Positions 12,410 through 21,629 of a DNA stretch of 64,000 nt are shown one piece after another. Positions within the stretch are counted from its first letter, which is position 1. The number at the start of each line of letters is the position of its first letter. The stretch lies in the NCBI GenBank assembly GCA_965279035.1, contig OZ257142.1, forward strand, positions 64,001-128,000, given 5' to 3'. The position numbers were made by a program, and so were the translations under genes. Source of the stretch: Bacteroidia bacterium. GTDB taxonomy: Bacteria; Bacteroidota; Bacteroidia; M30B66. The notes beneath the pieces were generated by a model that saw only the letters and a list, made by a program, of their open reading frames with translations, searched no databases and was not told the origin of the DNA.

Positions 12410-13114
12410 CTATACTTCTGTTGTTCGGATTTCGGCTGTAAACTGCTCTATTGTCTGAGCATTTTCTATATCATGTGGGCCAATAGCCGTGCGGCAAAGT
12501 TTGGATAGATATGCACCTGATTGGAGCGCTAGTCCAAAGTCGCGGGCGAGAGATCGGATATAGGTTCCTTTGGTACATTCTACCCGGAAATCGACTTCGG
12601 GTAAGGCAATTCGGGTGATTTCGAATGCGGTGATTTCGATGCTGGAAGTTTTCATCTTCACATCTTTCCCAGCGCGAGCTAATTCATAAGCACGTTCGCC
12701 ATCGATTTTCTTTGCAGAGAAAACTGGAGGTTCTTGGTCGTGTATGCCGATGAAGTTTTTTGCTACTTCATGGATCATTTCCTCCGTAATGTGGGATGTG
12801 GGAAAATGTTGATCTACTTCCTTTTCTAAATCGAAGGAAACGGTAGTCCCGCCGAGCGTAAACGTGCCAGTATATGTTTTAGGTAAGCCCTGAAATGTGT
12901 CGATTTGCTTGGTGAATTTGCCGGTGCAAATTAGCATCAAGCCAGTAGCCAATGGATCGAGTGTGCCAGCATGTCCAACTTTTATCGACATCCGTTTTAG
13001 CTTATAATGCTTTTCGATGGCAAAACGAACTTTATTAACGAGGTCGAAAGAAGTCCAGCCGAGTGGTTTATCGAAAAGAAGAAGTTTCCCAGCGTGGAAA
13101 GGGGATTCGCTCAT
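12410..13114 (-). CDS. truB: tRNA pseudouridine(55) synthase
   Basis: [37 protein letters not shown]; start ATG 13114 overlaps the uppP stop. Confidence 0.95.
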
Positions 13115-13902
13115 ACAACAGAAAGATTGACTCCTGCAGCGAGCAGAATTAGAATGATAGCGCCCACTACAATGCGATACCAACCAAAAAGACGAAATCC
13201 GTGTTTAGTTAGGAACCCGATAAAGAAGCGGATAGCCAATAAAGCAACGATGAATGCTACCACATTCCCGAAAAGAAGAATGCTCAAATTATCGGTTATG
13301 ACAGTTGGATCGCCTTTGAGGAAAACCTTGAGCAGTTTATATCCGGATGCTGCAGCCATGGTAGGAACTGCAAGGAAAAAAGAAAATTCTGCGGCTGTTT
13401 TACGCGAAAGTCCTTGAGTCATTCCTCCAATGATAGTTGCCGCCGAACGCGAAACCCCTGGAATTAGAGCAATACACTGGAAAAGCCCAATAAATAATGC
13501 TGATTGATTGGTGACTTGTGTAGGTGAATCTTCGGTTTTAAACCAGTTATCGACGAACAGTAAAGCAACACCACCAATTAAAAGGGTGATTCCTACAACT
13601 AATGGACTTTCGAGCATGAAATCGATGGCATCACCTGCCAATAATCCAATGATTGCAGCGGGGAAAAATGCGATTCCTAGTTTGATGTAAAAAGGAATGT
13701 CTTGAAGAAAACGTTTCCAATAAAGAAGGAGAACCGAGAGAATGGCTCCAAACTGAATGTTTACGGTAAAGAGCTTCACGAATTCGTCGGAATCCATGCC
13801 GAGCAAAGCCTGAGTAATGACCATGTGACCAGTAGAGGACACGGGTAAAAACTCAGTTAGTCCTTCCACCACCGCGATGATGAAGGCTTCCAGAATAGTC
13901 AT
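13111..13902 (-). CDS. uppP: Undecaprenyl-diphosphate phosphatase
   Basis: [34 protein letters not shown]. Confidence 0.95.
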
Positions 13903-13908
13903 CCGGAA

Positions 13909-14154
13909 TTAGTTTTTGGGTTTGTAGAGAATAGCGAACACTTCGATTGCAAAACCAATCAGAACTACGATTGGTGCAACAGTGATACGTTGTGTATTAA
14001 AAATTTCGGGGTTAAAGACATTAGGATCTTTAGAACCTCCGCCAACCATGAGCAGGAAACCAACGAGAATTACTAGAATTCCTGCAAGCATGATTTTATA
14101 ATTCATCGGGCTGAATGCAAACCCTTTCTGATTGTTGTCTTTTTCGGTGCTCAT
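13909..14154 (-). CDS. DUF3098 family membrane protein
   Basis: NYKIMLAG...GGGS.DP..FNPEIF...RITVAP; conserved ftsX-DUF3098-uppP-truB order. Confidence 0.85.
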   Translation of the reverse strand: MSTEKDNNQKGFAFSPMNYKIMLAGILVILVGFLLMVGGGSKDPNVFNPEIFNTQRITVAPIVVLIGFAIEVFAILYKPKN

Positions 14155-14163
14155 CTGTAAGGC

Positions 14164-15039
14164 TTAATACAGTGAATCTGTTTTGAGATGCAAGTATTTT
14201 CGGACTGCAAAGAAAGTACAAATCCACGACAATCCGATACCTCCCAAAAGTATCCCTCCGGCTAAAATACCAAGTAAGTTAAAGTCGCGCAGAGGCTTGA
14301 GTTCAGGGATTTGTTGTTCTCCTAAATACAGCATTCCTGCTAATAAGTGAATGGCTAAAATTCCACCAGCAAAACCTTGAATGAAACTAGCTCGAAGAAA
14401 TGGTCCACGAATAAATCCTCGAGTGGCGCCAACAAGCTGCATGGTTCGAATGAGCAGTCGCTTGGAGTATATGGAAAGTCGGATAGTATTGTTAATTAGC
14501 GTTACCGCGATAAATGTTAGAATAGCTGAGAAAGCCAAGAAGAACCAACTCAATTTGCGCATATTATCGATGATTTGGTTGATTAGATTTCTAGGATAAT
14601 CAACCTGAGCAACAAGCGGATTTGTCAGCCATTCTTTTTCAATCTTTTGGAAATCACTTTCGTTCGTGAAATTCACTTTAAATCGCACATCGATTGAAGC
14701 AGGAAGCGGATTGTATCCAAGGAAATCGACAAATTCTTCCCCCAAATCTTTCTGAAATTCATCTGCAGCTTGAGCACGCGTGATAAAGGTGGTCGATTTT
14801 ACGTATGGTTGTGTATCAAGCTCTTGTTTGAATGCAAGGATTTGAGCATCGTCAACTGAATCGCGAAAGAAAACCGAAACCTGAAACGATTCCCGTGTGG
14901 TGTCGGAAAGTTTTTTGGCATCGACGAGGAGTAGTCCGAGCAAACCGAGCATGAACAATACCATGGCGATGCTCACCACAGAAGTGATGTAAGAGGCGCG
15001 AATTCGACGGCGGTTGAACTGATTTTCGTTACTGGACAT
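14164..15039 (-). CDS. ftsX: Cell division permease FtsX
   Basis: LGYNPLPASI, INNTIRLSIYSKRLLIRTMQLVGAT. Confidence 0.9.
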   Translation of the reverse strand: MSSNENQFNRRRIRASYITSVVSIAMVLFMLGLLGLLLVDAKKLSDTTRESFQVSVFFRDSVDDAQILAFKQELDTQPYVKSTTFITRAQAADEFQKDLGEEFVDFLGYNPLPASIDVRFKVNFTNESDFQKIEKEWLTNPLVAQVDYPRNLINQIIDNMRKLSWFFLAFSAILTFIAVTLINNTIRLSIYSKRLLIRTMQLVGATRGFIRGPFLRASFIQGFAGGILAIHLLAGMLYLGEQQIPELKPLRDFNLLGILAGGILLGGIGLSWICTFFAVRKYLHLKTDSLY

Positions 15040-15219
15040 GAACTTGGAAACAAAGGCCAAATATACAGATGCAAAAGGCGAACTGAATGGGTGTTTTGGT
15101 CATCTTTCAACAGGATGATGAACAGAAAATGTGGACAAGTGTGAGGAATTGAACTTGTAACAAAGATTCGCCTGTGCTTTTGTAACTTCGCCGCTTCATT
15201 AAAATACCCCGATTCCCTG

Positions 15220-18200
15220 ATGGAGCCGAATTTCCGCGCGATTGAAAAAAAGTGGCAACAAACCTGGAAAGATGAGAAGCGTTATAAGACGAACATCGAT
15301 CTTTCTAAGCCCAAGTATTATGTGCTCGATATGTTTCCTTACCCATCGGGTGCTGGATTACATGTTGGACATCCGCTCGGATATATCGCATCAGATATCG
15401 TTTCGCGTTACAAGCGTCTGAAAGGATTTAATGTATTGCACCCTATGGGCTTTGATGCCTTTGGTTTACCTGCTGAGCAGTATGCTATTCAAACAGGTCG
15501 ACACCCAGCCGATACGACTGCCGAAAACATTGCTCGCTATAAAGAACAGCTAGGAAACATTGGCTTTTGTTACGATTGGGACAGAGAAGTTATTACTTCA
15601 GATCCAAGCTATCACAAATGGACACAATGGATTTTTCTTCAATTGTTTGGATGTTGGTTCAATTTAGAAAGCCAGAAAGCAGAAGACATTTCCAAGCTTG
15701 AAGCATTGTTTGCCAAAGGAGGAAGTGCTGCTGCAAAAGGAGCTTGCGGAGAACATGCCCCATTTAGTGCTGCAGAATGGAATGCCATGAACGAAGCTGA
15801 TAAGCGTGGAATTTTAATGCAGTATCGTTTGGCTTACCAAGATTTTAGCACCGTGAACTGGTGTGAAGCTTTGGGAACTGTATTGGCAAATGATGAAGTG
15901 AAAGATGGCTTGAGTGAACGTGGCGGACATCCCGTTGAAAAACGTCGGATGCGTCAATGGTTTTTACGCATTACAGCCTATGCTGAACGATTACTCAACG
16001 ATTTGGAGACACTCGAGTGGACCGATTCGATGAAGGAAATGCAGCGTAACTGGATTGGGAAATCGGAAGGAGCAAGTATTCGTTTTGAAGTTGCATCCGA
16101 TGACCTCACCCCTAGCCCCTCTCCGCGGGAGAGGGGGATGGATTCCGGTGTTGTTTCAGAGCCCGGGGTTGAATACCATCATGCAAACTCAAGTCAATGG
16201 AAACTTTTAATTCCACGTGCTAAGGAGATGAGGTCGAATATGACTGAATCTGAAAAAGCACTTTGGGAAGCACTTAGGAATTCTGCGATTGGATTGAAAT
16301 TCAGAAGGCAACATATTATTGATCAATTCATTGTTGATTTTGTTTGTCTTTCAAAAATGCTCGTTGTTGAAATTGATGGTAAAATTCATGACAATCAGAA
16401 GGAGTATGATGAAGGTAGAACAGCTGAATTAAATCGTTTAGGATTTGAAGTGATTCGTTTTGAAAATGAGGAGCTTGCAGAAAATCTTAGTGTTGTAGTT
16501 GATAAAATAAAATCAATCTGCGAATCTCGCCCTACAAGTACAATTGGAAATGACGCAATTTCAGTTGTAGAAGAATCTCAAGAAGAATACACTGCATCTC
16601 TCCCCTCTCCCCGAGGAGAGGGGTCGGGGGTGAGGTCAACAATGACCGATAAAACCAAAGTATCCCAAAATAAAAACGCAATTGATAGCAATCTCGAAAA
16701 TTCTCTCCCCTCTCCTCGAGGAGAGGGGCCGGGGCTGAGGTCAAAACACATTATTGAAGTCTTCACCACTCGTCCCGATACTATTTTTGGTGTTAGCTTT
16801 TTAACCCTTGCGCCCGAGCATGAATTGGTGTCGGTAATTACTACTGACGCGCAACGCGATGCTGTAAATGCCTATGTTGAAGTAGCTAAAAATAGAAGTG
16901 AACGTGAACGCATGGCTGATGTAAAACGCATCAGCGGGGAATTCACCGGAGCGTATGTTCTTCATCCATTTACAGGAGCTAAAATTCCGGTTTGGGTGGG
17001 CGATTATGTGTTGGCAGGATATGGAACCGGAGCGGTGATGGCTGTTCCTGCTGGCGATCAACGCGACTGGGATTTTGCAAAACATTTCAACCTTCCTATT
17101 CCTGTAATAAACGAAGGCGTTGATATTTCGGAAGCTGCTAATCCTACCAAGGAAGCAAAGATGATAAATTCTGATTTCCTCAATGGATTAACTGGATACG
17201 AAGCCTTGAAGAAAGCCATTGCTATTATTGAGGAACGAGGATTTGGAAAAGGAAAAGTGAATTATCGCTTGCGAGATGCTGGATTTAGTCGCCAACGCTA
17301 TTGGGGAGAGCCTTTCCCTATTGTGTATCGCGATGGTGTTGCTTATCCGCTTGCTGAAAACGAATTGCCTTTGGAATTGCCTGTGATGGCCGATTTCAAA
17401 CCGACTGGACAGCCCGAAAGTCCTTTGACCAAAGTGCCAGAATGGGTGAATGTACCGTCTGGAACACGTGAAACGGATACTATGCCGGGTTATGCAGGTT
17501 CTTCTTGGTATTTCTTGCGTTATATGGATCCGCAAAACAACACACGTTTTGTAGGAAGAGAAGCGGAAGAATATTGGCAAGATGTGGATTTATACATTGG
17601 CGGAACAGAGCATGCTGTTGGACATTTATTGTATGCACGTTTCTGGCAAAAATTCTTGTTTGATCGTGGGGAAGTGAGTAAAAACGAGCCATTCCGCAAA
17701 TTGATTAATCAAGGGATGATTTTGGGGCGTTCGAATTTTGTTTATCAGATAGTAGGTACATCCAAGTTCATTTCGAAAGATATGCTCGACGAATTCAAGG
17801 ATGAAAAAATCCTGCAAACGCACGTGGATGTGAACATAGTGCAGAATGATTTATTGAACCTCAACTCATTTAAAGCTTGGCGAGATGAAAATGCTCAAGC
17901 TGAATTTGTCTTGAATGCAGAAGGCAATTATGTGTGCGGTGTCGAGGTCGAGAAAATGTCGAAGTCGAAGTACAATGTGGTAAATCCTGACGATATCATC
18001 AATGATTACGGTGCGGATACCTTGCGATTATATGAGATGTTTTTGGGACCATTGGAGCAATTCAAACCATGGAATACCAATGGAATTGAAGGTGTTTATC
18101 GCTTCTTGAAAAAGTTGTGGAATTTGTACTTCGATGTGAATGGGCAGGTGAAACTAAGTGATGAAGCGCCAACAGAATCGGAGTTGCGCACCCTACATAA

Positions 18201-18636
18201 AACCATTCGTAAAGTAGAAGAAGACATTGAAAAATTCTCCTTCAATACTTCGGTGAGTGTGTTTATGATTTGTGTAAATGAACTAAGCGAACAAAAGTGT
18301 CGCAAACGCTCGATCCTTAAGGATTTAAGTATCATTATCGCACCCTATGCTCCTCACATGGCTGAAGAGTTATGGCAAGCTTGCGGTGGAGCTGGATCGG
18401 TTGTAGATGCTCAATTTCCGAAATGGAATGAGAGTTTCATCAAAGAAAGCTCGATCGCTTATCCAGTTGCATTCAATGGAAAAGTACGTTACCAAATTCA
18501 GGTAGCTGCCGATATGCCACAGGCTGAAGTACAAGCCTTAGCTTTAAGTCACGAAGATGCGGCTAAATGGTTACCTGAAGGCGGACCTAAGAAAGTGATA
18601 GTTGTTCCAGGAAGAATGGTAAACGTGGTGATTTAA
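15220..18636 (+). CDS. leuS: Leucine--tRNA ligase carrying an in-frame ~214-aa endonuclease/repeat insertion
   Basis: [14 protein letters not shown] (HIGH), FTTRPDT and GTGAVMAVP editing motifs, KMSKS; 1138 aa, or 924 aa without the insert. Confidence 0.97.
16101..16137 (+). repeat. Palindromic repeat copy R1 (translated [12 protein letters not shown])
   Basis: tgacctcacccctag-cccctctcc-gcg-ggagagggg; perfect 9-bp stem. Confidence 0.9.
16201..16521 (+). other. DUF559 / Vsr-like PD-(D/E)xK endonuclease domain within LeuRS
   Basis: [13 protein letters not shown]...[15 protein letters not shown]...[10 protein letters not shown]...DEGRT..L...GFEVIRF.N. Confidence 0.9.
16597..16639 (-). repeat. 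Palindromic repeat copy R2, inverted relative to R1 (translated [14 protein letters not shown])
   Basis: tctctcccctctcc-ccga-ggagagggg-tcgggggtgaggtcaa. Confidence 0.9.
16702..16744 (-). repeat. Palindromic repeat copy R3, direct repeat of R2 (translated [14 protein letters not shown])
   Basis: tctctcccctctcc-tcga-ggagagggg-ccggggctgaggtcaa; 40/43 identical to R2 and 105 nt downstream. Confidence 0.9.
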
Positions 18637-18638
18637 AC

Positions 18639-21629
18639 TTACCGAACAATCAACTTCTTTTGAACTTTTGAGCCATTGATGAGCGTTGCATCAACTAGAT
18701 ACATTCCGCTCGACAAGGATTGAATGTCGAACTGTTGAAGCACATTTGTATCGCCCGATTTACGAAGAAGCACTCTTCCAGAGATATCGCTGATTCGGAT
18801 TTCCTTCGCTTTCGATGGCAATAAAACACGAACACTTGTTGCAGCTGGATTAGGATAGATTTCTAATTCAGCTGTTTCATTTTGTGGTATAGTTAAAACA
18901 ATATCTTCAGCTATGGTATTCAGCGTGGTATTGGTTACAACCGGCTCGTTGAAATCGAAATATATGAGTGCTGTATTTTGGAATTCCGTTCCCGGATTGG
19001 TCGCATTTGCTTGGCGTTTCACTCTAAATGCAATCCAACCATGTGATTCGGGTTCATTGCTAAGCGAATCTGCCAAATTGATGTTAGGGAAAACGAAACG
19101 AATGAGATTGCCTTGACGGATTTCGGTTTGGTACGAATGACTAGCTGCCATCACCTGAAGCGAATTCAAATCGAAAAGAGAAGAAAGCGTGTCTTCCACG
19201 TAAATATTATCGGCGGGAGCGGTTCCTGTGTTTTGAAATTCAATAAGGAACTGAAAATCTTCTACCGCTGCACTTATCAACCCTTGCTCCCCTTGCCCTG
19301 CTGGATTCACATTTTTACGATTCGGATCGAAACTTCCAATTACCATACAATTCATATCGAAATGATTATTGTCGGAATCATCATCTTGAAGTAGTGGAAT
19401 GATTTCTCCATAAGAATGTAAAGCGTGTCCAACATATCCTGGATCTGGAGGCAAATCAACCCAAGTTCTGAAATAAGCGCTCTGTCCTGGATTGAGATCT
19501 ACTTGCCAAGTACAGGTATCACCATTTATTCCTAAGATAGTTACTTCATCCTCCGTTCCAGAGTAATGCCCTTCTGCACCATCAATCCACAAAGTATCAC
19601 TTATGACATGACGATAAATGAAACTGATAGGTAGATTCCCAACATTCTGAACGATGGATGGAACATAACTCGTATGTCCTGGAACTAATTGAGCACATCC
19701 GCCAAATACAATAGCAGCATCGTACACAGGAGCAGTAATCGTATCTCCGAAATTAATTCCGTTAATGATTTGGTTGAATGCTGTTGGGTTGACTAAAAGA
19801 GTATCCTCACAGAGTGTTCCCATCAAAGGATGATTAAAGCTGCTTTGATAAATATGTTGTGGACCAGGAGGAATACGTAACGTGTAATTCCCTATTGAAT
19901 CAGTCAATGCCATTCGATCAAATTCAGGAGAATAAACCATGACTGAAGAAACGGTAAGCTCATTGGTGTCCAACAAGCAATCTGCGTCAGCATCAAAGAA
20001 AACGGTACCATTTATCACAGCACAGCTATCGAAATTATTGATAATCGAAGGATAAAAAACTGTGCAATGTTGGTCGTTATCGTAAACACGTAAATTAAAA
20101 TTCTGTGCTGGAGAATTAAAAACACCTGTTGAAGTATCTGATACGCCTGCAATTCCCCAGTCGTAATGCAAAGAATCCAATCCTGGGAAACTGTAAATTG
20201 CAAATCCATCATCCTCTCCTGGGCAACTTACATCGCGCATTTGAACAATAGGAATGGATTGCCCTAGTGTATTTGTAGTAGGTAATAAGCGAGGAATCAC
20301 ATGCAATGTGTCTCTGAAATTGCACCCTGAAATAGTCATGGAATGCACTTCATAATCGCCGTATTGCGAAATGGTATAAGGTCCAGAACCATTAAAAACT
20401 TGATTATTTGCTAGGTTGGTCCATTCGGATAATTGAATTGGATAATTGGTTTGATTTTCGGGGTCGAGTGTTAGCGGATCGCCACAATAGAGGAACGTAT
20501 CAGCAGGAATTACAAAATTAACGTCTTGAACAGGATAGAAATAGCTGATAGAATCGACACAGGTACCTATTGTTCCTGCAAGACTAATGGTTGTGCTATG
20601 TTGAGGAATGTAATTGAAAAAATACGAAGTATCACTTTGTAGAACACCATCTACATACCAACGATAGTCGTCAAAACCAGTTGTTGAGTAGCAAGAAATA
20701 GGTGTTGTTGGATGACAATAGGGTGTTGTTGGCGGCTCGGGCAATACGAGGTAAATAGGGTTTTCGCAATTCGGGTCGTAAATGGCGAAATTATCGAATA
20801 GATAGCGCGATTGAAAAGTCACATCATGTGTTCCTGAATAATGAATGGAATCGAGCGGACTAAAACTTCCAACCATCAACCATTCTTCTCCATGTCCAAT
20901 AATATCTTGTTCAACAGTAAGTCCTGTATCTGAAATAATTTGTCCGACAGGAGTGACAGAAGTGGGTGTAATGGTATCAACAGGAACATTGGTATAAGAA
21001 CCTGCCCAATTAGGAGGATTAGGACTTAAATAAACACCTAATTGATCTTGCCAAACATTGGCTGTTGTTAGTTCTCCACTTGGATGAGCTGCAGCAACAG
21101 TGTAGCGTAAATGATAGGTTTTTCCATGCATTAGTGGGCGCGCCAATTTCACATACATGTATTCACGCAAATCATTGTGAGAAGTATTGCCGTAGGTAGT
21201 TTTAAGAATTAGTGCTCCGCTTATCACCACTCCATGAATGGCCGCATACGAAGTATTTACAGTAGAACCTACTAAAGGAACATTGCAACGCCAAGAGGCG
21301 GTATGTCCAAAATCAACATAAGCTTCGTAATTCCAACCGCTTGGTTGAGTAATTTGTGCTTGTCCAGTTGACCAACCGGAGCCAAAGTTTCCAAACGTAT
21401 GATATGAACTGGCGGAACAAGTTGGATTAGAACCGGAAAAGATAAAACCATTCAAATTTCCACTTGGAACTAAATTATAAGGACCATTAAATGACCAGCC
21501 TGCATTGGTTCCACTCTGTGCACCAGTTGGACTAATGGTTATATCGTCGTTGTAGTTTACTTGGGCTCGAAGTGTTCCAATACAAACAAAAAGAATCCAA
21601 ATAATATTTTTAACTGCTTTCATTTTCAA
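18639..21629 (-). CDS. Large T9SS type A sorting-domain protein
   Basis: Signal peptide; SFDPNRK, FQNTGTAPA and IYFDFNEPV module; CTD IYPNPA...SSGMYLV...KKLIVR. Confidence 0.85.
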   Translation of the reverse strand: MKMKAVKNIIWILFVCIGTLRAQVNYNDDITISPTGAQSGTNAGWSFNGPYNLVPSGNLNGFIFSGSNPTCSASSYHTFGNFGSGWSTGQAQITQPSGWNYEAYVDFGHTASWRCNVPLVGSTVNTSYAAIHGVVISGALILKTTYGNTSHNDLREYMYVKLARPLMHGKTYHLRYTVAAAHPSGELTTANVWQDQLGVYLSPNPPNWAGSYTNVPVDTITPTSVTPVGQIISDTGLTVEQDIIGHGEEWLMVGSFSPLDSIHYSGTHDVTFQSRYLFDNFAIYDPNCENPIYLVLPEPPTTPYCHPTTPISCYSTTGFDDYRWYVDGVLQSDTSYFFNYIPQHSTTISLAGTIGTCVDSISYFYPVQDVNFVIPADTFLYCGDPLTLDPENQTNYPIQLSEWTNLANNQVFNGSGPYTISQYGDYEVHSMTISGCNFRDTLHVIPRLLPTTNTLGQSIPIVQMRDVSCPGEDDGFAIYSFPGLDSLHYDWGIAGVSDTSTGVFNSPAQNFNLRVYDNDQHCTVFYPSIINNFDSCAVINGTVFFDADADCLLDTNELTVSSVMVYSPEFDRMALTDSIGNYTLRIPPGPQHIYQSSFNHPLMGTLCEDTLLVNPTAFNQIINGINFGDTITAPVYDAAIVFGGCAQLVPGHTSYVPSIVQNVGNLPISFIYRHVISDTLWIDGAEGHYSGTEDEVTILGINGDTCTWQVDLNPGQSAYFRTWVDLPPDPGYVGHALHSYGEIIPLLQDDDSDNNHFDMNCMVIGSFDPNRKNVNPAGQGEQGLISAAVEDFQFLIEFQNTGTAPADNIYVEDTLSSLFDLNSLQVMAASHSYQTEIRQGNLIRFVFPNINLADSLSNEPESHGWIAFRVKRQANATNPGTEFQNTALIYFDFNEPVVTNTTLNTIAEDIVLTIPQNETAELEIYPNPAATSVRVLLPSKAKEIRISDISGRVLLRKSGDTNVLQQFDIQSLSSGMYLVDATLINGSKVQKKLIVR

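Follow-up and report, generated by a model that had tools for sequence, protein, structure and literature searches.

Background

Rickettsia palindromic elements (RPEs) were reportedly described by Ogata et al. They are about 150 bp long and encode no enzyme (PMC10969869). I-Bth0305I, one of the EDxHD or Vsr-like homing endonucleases, forms a homodimer and has several domains in about 266 aa; genes of this type are housed in a group I intron or between the halves of a split intein (PMC3239194; Dassa et al. 2009, PMC2677866). A TMECO repeat of Escherichia coli consists of a 9-nt C-rich arm, a loop of 3-6 nt, a 9-nt G-rich arm, a 3-nt loop and a 9-nt mirror G-rich arm, in which T stands opposite A (Holder et al. 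2015, PMC4666352). The locus considered here has traits of all three. It lies in a 64,000-nt stretch of a Bacteroidia bacterium (assembly GCA_965279035.1, contig OZ257142.1, positions 64,001 to 128,000; hereafter "the window"), in which the gene for leucyl-tRNA synthetase (leuS; LeuRS) carries, in frame, a cassette made of a DUF559 nuclease domain between structured DNA ends. On balance we read the stretch as a member of a family of selfish cassettes with a nuclease, which in this lineage has been carried mostly vertically, lost repeatedly and probably regained.

A nuclease cassette in frame within leuS

The cassette comprises codons 295-508 of LeuRS, i.e. 642 nt without a stop codon, and the frame of the synthetase is continuous through it from 15220 to 18636 (Table 1). 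A first-pass annotation, made from the letters of the window, had called these codons foreign, had predicted that LeuRS without them would be a normal enzyme of 924 aa, and had proposed to look for empty alleles by aligning leuS of close relatives. Such alleles exist: in close relatives leuS without the cassette has 924 codons. One of them, L005, is 96% identical in protein with a match over 2772 nt, and its DNA aligns to positions 12951-16073 (92.5%) and 16751-18636 (90.8%) of the window; between the aligned parts, L005 has 35 nt where the window has 677 nt. Scanning one genome per species gave 79 leuS loci, a set that leans to carriers because one of the six search words was derived from the insert. 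Among the 24 species genomes of the window's family, leuS is filled in nine, empty in 12 and unreadable in three, and the distance from NWIG to FTTR is exactly 28 aa in all 12 empty alleles, in comparison to 28 + 214 aa in the window.

The insertion site is a surface loop just ahead of the CP1 editing domain, as had been proposed: the conserved Thr-rich CP1 sequence directly adjoins the insertion point, and the editing domain recognised by Pfam (aa 509-667) starts directly after the cassette. Seven Pfam families match the LeuRS open reading frame (ORF) at E<=0.01, and neither an intein/Hint family nor a transposase is among them; the cassette terminates in ...GLRS with K as the next residue and hence lacks the His-Asn end of inteins. 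The annotation was thus right in denying the insert a HINT domain, a His-Asn end, a transposase and a stop codon. No Rfam family reaches its gathering score within 15000-19000, which gives no indication of an intron, and no target-site duplication is seen in the bases that flank the two borders (..TCCGAT / AAACAC..). A PHROGs search returned three families only, all of unknown function. Of 44 related leuS cassettes, 43 keep an open frame across ends, linkers and domain, and the remaining one holds N. A seeming split of leuS in another locus (L082, genome G011) proved void, as that locus holds 100 N.

Table 1. Features of the leuS locus, in positions of the window
Feature	Positions	Strand	Basis or remark
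leuS, leucyl-tRNA synthetase, cassette included, 1138 aa	15220..18636	+	ORF; Pfam tRNA-synt_1, LeuRS editing domain, Anticodon_1
Host loop, codons 285-293 (IRFEVASD side)	16072..16098	+	Sequence tracks the filled state, not the species tree
Cassette, 214 in-frame codons missing from empty alleles	16102..16743	+	Comparison with empty loci
Left end motif: pyrimidine arm CCTCACCCC (16104-16112), 3-nt gap, hairpin CCCCTCTCC-GCG-GGAGAGGGG (16116-16136)	16104..16136	-	
DUF559 (Vsr-like PD-(D/E)xK) nuclease domain, LeuRS aa 333-434	16216..16521	+	Pfam E 3.8e-35
Right end motif 1: hairpin CCCCTCTCC-CCGA-GGAGAGGGG, 3-nt gap, mirror purine arm GGGGTGAGG	16602..16635	+	
Spacer separating the two right-end copies, 105-nt period	16640..16706	+	Bridged by a unique 123-nt contig of run X1
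Right end motif 2: in tandem with motif 1, third arm with 1 mismatch	16707..16740	+	
Host strand KHIIEVFTT, beginning of the Thr-rich CP1 motif, beside the insertion point	16744..16770	+	

The nuclease domain

The insert holds a complete DUF559 domain (PF04480), as claimed from its letters: the match covers profile positions 6-108 of 109 and scores 120.5 bits against a cut-off of 20.6. Its core matches the DUF559 crystal structure 3hrl of the PDB in sequence (E 6e-19), and I-Bth0305I (3r3p) at E 0.07. An AlphaFold2 model of the cassette with its host strands, built on 40 leuS inserts, gives the core a predicted local distance difference test (pLDDT) score of 92-97 and places the two host strands on either side of the cassette. 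Scores are below 50 for the stretches that the ends encode, residues 23-42 and 171-228 in the numbering of the model, and for the 11-residue linker specified by the left end motif. The template modelling (TM) score of the modelled core is 0.88 against 3hrl, 0.69 against the catalytic domain of I-Bth0305I (3r3p) and 0.42 against 1vsr, in agreement with the relationship to Vsr and the EDxHD endonucleases that the first-pass annotation had given for DUF559.

Residues D98, F99 and E109 are invariant in the alignment of 40 leuS inserts (A1), and 90% or more of these inserts retain D111, G112, H115 and D122. D98, D111, H115 and D122 align to Asp196, Asn208, His213 and Asp222 of I-Bth0305I, which have been equated with Asp51, His64, His69 and Asp97 of Vsr (PMC3239194). 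The predicted fold and the aligned catalytic residue set together place the domain among the Vsr-like PD-(D/E)xK nucleases. The cassette carries only this nuclease core of about 105 aa, its flanks being low-confidence linkers, and the G+C content at third codon positions is 0.225 in the core versus 0.38 in leuS.

Structured ends with a fixed polarity

Two 43-nt direct repeats (16597-16639 and 16702-16744) are 93% identical, and an inverted copy of this GC-rich repeat at 16101-16143 is 77% complementary. The inverted termini TGACCTCA and TGAGGTCA lie at 16101-16108 and 16737-16744; the coordinates, motifs, termini and "> < <" orientation of the first-pass annotation all proved correct. The two borders carry terminal inverted repeats, TGACCTCACCCC and GGGGCTGAGGTCA, like those of transposons and of miniature inverted-repeat transposable elements (MITEs). 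Each end motif joins a hairpin to a third arm. The left motif is the reverse complement of the right type and its hairpin is perfect over 9 bp; the purine arm of the right type, GGGGTGAGG, mirrors the purine arm of the hairpin, with T opposite A. This hairpin-plus-third-arm pattern matches three times, each time at a cassette end and nowhere else in the 64 kb, and it is matched in 0 of 100 shuffles. The end hairpins fold at about -10 kcal/mol as DNA.

The same ends recur around related cassettes with a constant polarity. Under a strict 9-nt definition of the motif, the left type lies upstream in 41 of 50 leuS cassettes and the right type downstream in 38 of 47, both being present in 34 of 47, and the wrong polarity occurs in 1/50 and 0/47. 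For the in-frame cassettes of an unbiased sample (see below) the counts are 19/34 upstream, 15/34 downstream and 11/34 for both, and for DUF559 copies in small frames 8/22 and 6/22. The cassettes of IcmF-type mutases (L096, L145, L151) have their end motifs in the opposite polarity with respect to the reading direction of DUF559.

The arms vary by lineage, and the third arm varies together with the hairpin arm: a third arm differs from its own hairpin arm by a mean of 0.36 and 0.42 mismatches in the two sets of motifs, as compared to 1.15 and 1.03 when arms are permuted, and none of 1000 permutations was as low (44 and 45 motifs, from related loci that are not independent).

End motifs are also found alone. 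In 661 kb of other locus DNA there are 18 strand-hits, corresponding to about ten sites, all of which are in leuS and solo, without a nuclease. Solo in-frame motifs lie about 2.0-3.3 kb into leuS in seven loci (L009, L012, L016, L019, L024, L043, L044), at a second leuS site that is occupied by a full DUF559 cassette in other genomes, and shorter solo motifs are present at the first leuS site in five Crocinitomicaceae-type loci. Right ends may be multiplied: in L083 (genome G010) the right end consists of five tandem units of about 105 nt, each closing with a hairpin-plus-arm, and LeuRS reaches 1292 aa. The window has two right-end units with the same period of 105 nt and an unrelated spacer.

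Patchy presence and exchange of the flanking segment

On a 55-row tree of the LeuRS host, calculated without the insert columns, the filled or empty state requires 11 changes, and at least nine of these are forced by well-supported branches. The nearest relatives of the window, L085 and L005, are empty; in the next group L004 is filled and two members are empty, and the next branch, L001, is filled again. A 15-row DNA tree rejects uniting the filled alleles of the clade (approximately unbiased test, p 2e-61 for three rows and 2e-4 for the window with L004; the groups were chosen after the first tree was known).

A flank of the form IRFEV(A/T)xx...K(H/R)x is common to the filled alleles, and the empty alleles interleaved with them read LKFQLENHSD(L/Q), as do empty alleles elsewhere in the family. 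Fourteen sites linked to the filled or empty state fall within codons 280-299, more narrowly in codons 285-293, a density without parallel elsewhere, and the rest of the compared leuS has 13 sites that follow the tree. As a deletion cannot recreate the naive loop, a short segment must have been exchanged between lineages at least twice. These comparisons indicate that alleles of the short flanking segment were passed between lineages, in one direction or the other.

One pair of sisters differs in another manner. The filled genome G010 reads FYLSP, cassette, GERF, and its sister G015 reads FYLSP directly followed by GERF; in the DNA of G015 the two outer arms abut and make a small palindrome. 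Judged by its letters, this joint may be either the footprint of a precise excision or a minimal solo element.

Cassettes in other genes and genomes

A search of a protein database with the insert (E <= 1e-5, with length limits set by the whole protein) matched 491 proteins of 625-1992 aa. Among the 120 matches listed, counted by hand from their Pfam assignments, 94 are LeuRS, 14 MetH, five UvrA, three IleRS, three N6-methylase proteins and one an epimerase; named carriers in LeuRS include Flavobacterium lacus, Capnocytophaga ochracea and Dysgonomonas alginatilytica. The matching proteins that were fetched have the same Pro/Gly-rich flanks and sometimes two cassettes per protein. In four of them (P0017, P0020, P0024 and P0019, from MetH, an epimerase and IleRS) two DUF559 cassettes occupy different sites, and P0017 has an extra solo palindrome peptide. 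The 24 family genomes contain 11 strong DUF559 matches, all in frames of 542-1349 aa: nine in leuS, one in an IcmF-type mutase and one in MetH. No free-standing copy is among these strong matches.

DUF559 occurs in 60 of 120 evenly sampled Bacteroidia genomes; of the 141 matches, 38 by hand count lie in frames of at least 600 aa. Hosts were assigned for 37 of these 38, which were fetched, and for the already known G022; 35 of the 38 are internal insertions and three are not. The hosts are LeuRS in 13 cases (eight at the window's site and five at a second site after the editing domain), MetH in five, HsdR and acetyl-CoA synthetase (Acs) in three each, RecG, IcmF-type proteins, SpoIIE-phosphatase sensors and Eco57I-type enzymes in two each, and IleRS, iPGM and RecJ in one each. 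Besides leuS, at least ten kinds of protein-coding gene harbour the unit of nuclease and structured ends in frame.

Two side observations concern these surveys. In L130 (genome G028) the DUF559 frame runs stop-free into a large gene with SpvB, TcdB-midN and RHS matches in Pfam; rather than an internal insertion, this is probably a small gene upstream whose frame continues into the next one. Five loci (L001, L003, L032, L033, L057) are leuS of Bacteroidia type in metagenome bins with misfit names (Chitinophaga pinensis, Streptomyces griseus, Chryseobacterium gleum).

Assembly and read evidence

Four sequencing runs of one sample contain the stretch. The read evidence comes from contigs, which attest presence and not amounts, and contig joints with sides below 30 letters or unknown intervening sequence were left out. 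A false joint at the repeats, which the first-pass annotation had named as a possible flaw, is favoured by two circumstances: short-read contigs break at repeats, and the repeat has other copies in run X1, where its depth is 740-1256 versus 171, i.e. 4-7 times the flank depth, and where it also occurs in other contigs; the raised depth hints at further repeat copies in the genome. The contigs of X1 nevertheless tile 15700-16639, 16611-16733 and 16712-17200 with exact overlaps and no mismatch, including the unique bridge between the right repeats, and 44 independent assemblies have the same architecture at the same site. We regard the probability of an artefact as negligible.

The annotation had also considered that the paired ends might loop the cassette out. 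The cassette would then be missing from the DNA of most cells or be taken out ahead of translation, and the working enzyme would have 924 aa. The complementary outer arms are suited to such a process, and G015, with its arms joined and nothing between, may record one precise excision. Routine removal is a different matter: at a word depth of about 170-fold no contig of X1 joins the flanks across the cassette, an open frame in 43 of 44 cassettes would be pointless if it were never translated, and a contig of a relative, from the RNA library X24, enters the cassette from the leuS flank, although carry-over of DNA could produce such a contig. We therefore consider regular looping-out highly improbable.

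The sludge metagenome X5 holds a filled relative together with a contig in which the flanks are joined by naive, empty-type loop letters. The three sludge or lake metagenome runs that were compared contain relatives at 88-95% likeness, not the organism of the window.

Selection, age and congruence with the host

Nei-Gojobori estimates for the DUF559 core are dN 0.041 and dS 0.442 between the window and L004, and dN 0.147 and dS 1.70 between the window and L001. The resulting dN/dS of about 0.09 points to purifying selection; that of the host leuS is about 0.04. The window differs from its nearest empty relatives by a dS of 0.40-0.49, and these are therefore distances at the level of species.

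These values bear on the view that the cassette is an inert relic, formerly mobile and now a tolerated passenger in slow decay, whose patchiness results from loss alone. Such a view would account for the lack of any visible recent transfer, for the degraded motifs of some copies (L014, L011) and for the nuclease-less end motifs at the same loop and at the second leuS site. The strength of selection and the conservation of the catalytic set in at least 90% of 40 copies are, however, unlike a passenger, and the empty alleles of the window's clade have naive loop codons, which deletion cannot produce. We consider an inert relic quite unlikely.

Selection of this strength would equally suit a domesticated domain, that is, an old insertion now used by LeuRS and other hosts, for instance in nucleic-acid binding or moonlighting repair, inherited vertically and lost where dispensable. 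The agreement of insert and host phylogenies within the family, the correlation of their identities and the single copy per genome, all detailed below, are in line with this possibility. On the other side, 12 of the 21 readable family genomes lack the cassette, and cassettes with the same ends occur in small free-standing frames as well as in unrelated enzymes. Conserved and covarying ends of the DNA would moreover have no role at the protein level, and the haplotype pattern of the flank requires exchange of alleles. Domestication thus appears unlikely to us, if somewhat less so than simple decay.

Our reading of the cassette as a selfish element with vertical carriage, loss and regain has to be weighed against several observations of our own. 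In a DUF559 tree of 108 rows and 107 columns, in which many forks are unresolved, the window and the eight other leuS copies of the family form a group (support 97) whose order is that of the host tree. Over 703 pairs of leuS carriers the identities of insert and host are correlated (r 0.64), and in no pair is the insert more than eight points more alike than the host, so that no transfer between distant hosts is visible among them. The family genomes have at most one copy each, with no sign of multiplication. One point in favour of the reading is weak: within codons 310-480 the dS of the insert to L004 is 0.38 versus 0.62 for the host, which is suggestive of later exchange, but the difference (bootstrap 95% confidence interval 0.01-0.46) is only marginally significant and is confounded by differing base composition. 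The energy of the end hairpins is unexceptional, with z -1.2 to -1.6 and 9 to 25 of 200 shuffles folding as well, and the case for a structure consequently rests on conservation, polarity and covariation. Finally, the NWIG-FTTR loop is a general insertion hotspot, so that insertion at a common site does not have to imply site-specific homing: the loop measures 28 aa in 25 of 94 loci and at least 150 aa in 40, another 24 carry other extras in loops of 29-149 aa, and five are unmatched. Some of the loops of intermediate length are built of tandem short repeats (e.g. L072, L075, L057), and others are short solo CCCCCT/AGGGGG palindromes (L033, L041, L047, L055, L076).

Since phylogenies and identities of insert and host largely agree, the cassette has for the most part been inherited vertically; jumps from one gene to another were rare, and losses frequent. 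Labels of the host gene require 25 changes on the DUF559 tree as compared to 58 when shuffled; the UvrA copies and the two IleRS sites each form groups of their own, and the leuS copies of the second site are nested among those of the first. The first-pass annotation had named, as a finding that would speak against a selfish element, vertical conservation with a congruent phylogeny and no repeat-flanked DUF559 at other loci. The first half of this is what we see, as trees agree and most genomes have one copy, yet cassettes are present in other genes. Its proposal of a splicing-independent selfish element accordingly stands in so far as the cassette is discrete, associated with neither intein nor intron, read through, found in other genes and variable in presence; the part that implies current mobility finds no echo in an insert tree that copies the host tree or in the 703 pairs. 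We infer that the cassette may be mobile at present.

A proposed mode of persistence

Under the reading we prefer, the element would consist of a DUF559 gene of about 105 aa between a left end (pyrimidine arm and hairpin) and a right end (hairpin and mirror purine arm) in fixed polarity. Without a start, a stop or any device for splicing, it would be translated as an extra domain of LeuRS. Comparison and modelling show that this domain hangs on disordered Pro/Gly/Ser-rich linkers, encoded by the cassette's own ends, at a loop that tolerates insertions, and the end motifs would encode flexible linkers in two of their three frames. The cassette would be lost repeatedly, either through deletion between the outer arms or when an empty-type allele takes the place of the loop, and it would be regained from close relatives, probably by short-tract gene conversion. 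Selection most likely keeps the nuclease intact because the nuclease makes the break that starts copying. Such a break, which might start copying or excision, could be made at the empty allele or at the structured ends, and the ends may be recognised by the nuclease or by the repair machinery. Homing on the empty allele and excision or insertion directed by the ends both fit our data, and we cannot choose between them.

A wider proposal, which we put forward tentatively, is that DUF559 with triplex-type hairpin ends constitutes a new class of autonomous mobile element, which would move by structure-specific cutting at its ends instead of using a transposase, intron or intein. In essential genes it would persist because it is translated as an extra domain that does no harm. 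The orphan TMECO, BoxC and PIT repeats of enterobacteria, whalefall-1 and the solo in-frame palindromes of many bacteria would then be nuclease-less derivatives or excision footprints.

If the preferred reading is true, selfish nuclease genes have, besides introns and inteins, a third way to live inside essential genes, namely an open frame with flexible linkers made from their own ends and without splicing. It would also provide a candidate function for DUF559, a very common "unknown" domain present in half of the 120 Bacteroidia genomes, and a candidate origin for the unexplained GC-rich triplex repeats catalogued in E. coli. For annotation, it would account for the two or three lengths in which LeuRS, MetH, IleRS and other enzymes of Bacteroidia occur, and for protein engineering it would offer a map of natural sites that tolerate 100-400 extra residues.

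Comparison with known systems

The ends of the cassette resemble the intrastrand triplex repeats TMECO, BoxC and PIT, with which they share an identical geometry, the arrangement in inverted pairs and a link with local variability (PMC4666352). The three motifs of the window have the TMECO-class geometry with 0-1 mismatch in hairpin and third arm, and are candidates for triplex formation. The literal TMECO consensus, CCCTCNCCC N3-6 GGGNGAGGG N3 GGGNGAGGG, has no match in the window, the arms being displaced from it by one base. The TMECOs themselves lie between genes, and their description, in which the word "endonuclease" does not occur, associates no gene with them (PMC4666352). A DUF559 gene and such repeats nonetheless meet in E. 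coli K-12, where ycjD (DUF559; L098, NC_000913.3 1351039-1351827) has its stop codon inside a CCCTCTCCC hairpin; 168 nt past this stop lies the TMECO that Holder et al. list as no. 9. As ycjD runs into a triplex-type repeat, the link between DUF559 and the repeats can be tested in a laboratory strain. About 40 nt of the 3' end of ycjD are repeated downstream in K-12. The fabI-ycjD-sapF arrangement of K-12 is kept in 3346 of 5426 E. coli genomes (query L098:1240-2630); in those of the remaining genomes that were listed, the match ends about 40 nt before the TMECO, and an O157:H7 chromosome (L156) has a TetR/RND efflux gene cluster there.

A second family of structured sequences, whalefall-1 of Rfam (RF01762), aligns to both right ends (16601-16637 and 16706-16742), at 19.4 and 16.8 bits versus a gathering score of 37. 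Its consensus, with a hairpin CuCuCC..GGaGaG and a 3' GGgGuGAGGAC tail, resembles the right ends, and looks like the hairpin-plus-GGGUGAGG design with a longer spacer. At scores below the threshold this likeness is a lead and does not make the ends members of the family.

Inteins, like the cassette, are selfish in-frame insertions at conserved sites of essential genes and often have a homing nuclease; the cassette differs in having no Hint domain and no His-Asn end and in that nothing is spliced out. With the EDxHD homing endonucleases it shares the nuclease fold, the aligned catalytic residues, the position beside highly conserved motifs of essential genes and the patchy occurrence (PMC3239194, PMC2677866). 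In contrast to the I-Bth0305I type, which is multidomain, the cassette has a core of 105 aa only, with no DNA-binding region N-terminal to the nuclease, and it stands in neither an intron nor an intein nor a split intein. Its product remains fused within the host enzyme, unlike those endonucleases, and its DNA has structured ends, which the homing endonuclease genes lack. Judged from the papers listed, the search of the literature found no account of DUF559 insertions in aminoacyl-tRNA synthetases or other enzymes, nor of a link between DUF559 and triplex repeats (subscription journals were outside its coverage), and the widespread family of DUF559 cassettes is apparently undescribed.

RPEs and in-frame MITEs are likewise palindromic and selfish, insert in frame into unrelated metabolic genes and are read as a peptide that the host fold tolerates (PMC10969869). 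Compared by description only, the cassette is in frame and has palindromic ends as they do, and it encodes an enzyme; it is set apart from RPEs by its own nuclease, by its short triplex-type end motifs and by its occurrence in Bacteroidia, not Rickettsia. The cassette thus combines features of Vsr-like homing endonucleases, of Rickettsia palindromic elements and of TMECO repeats.

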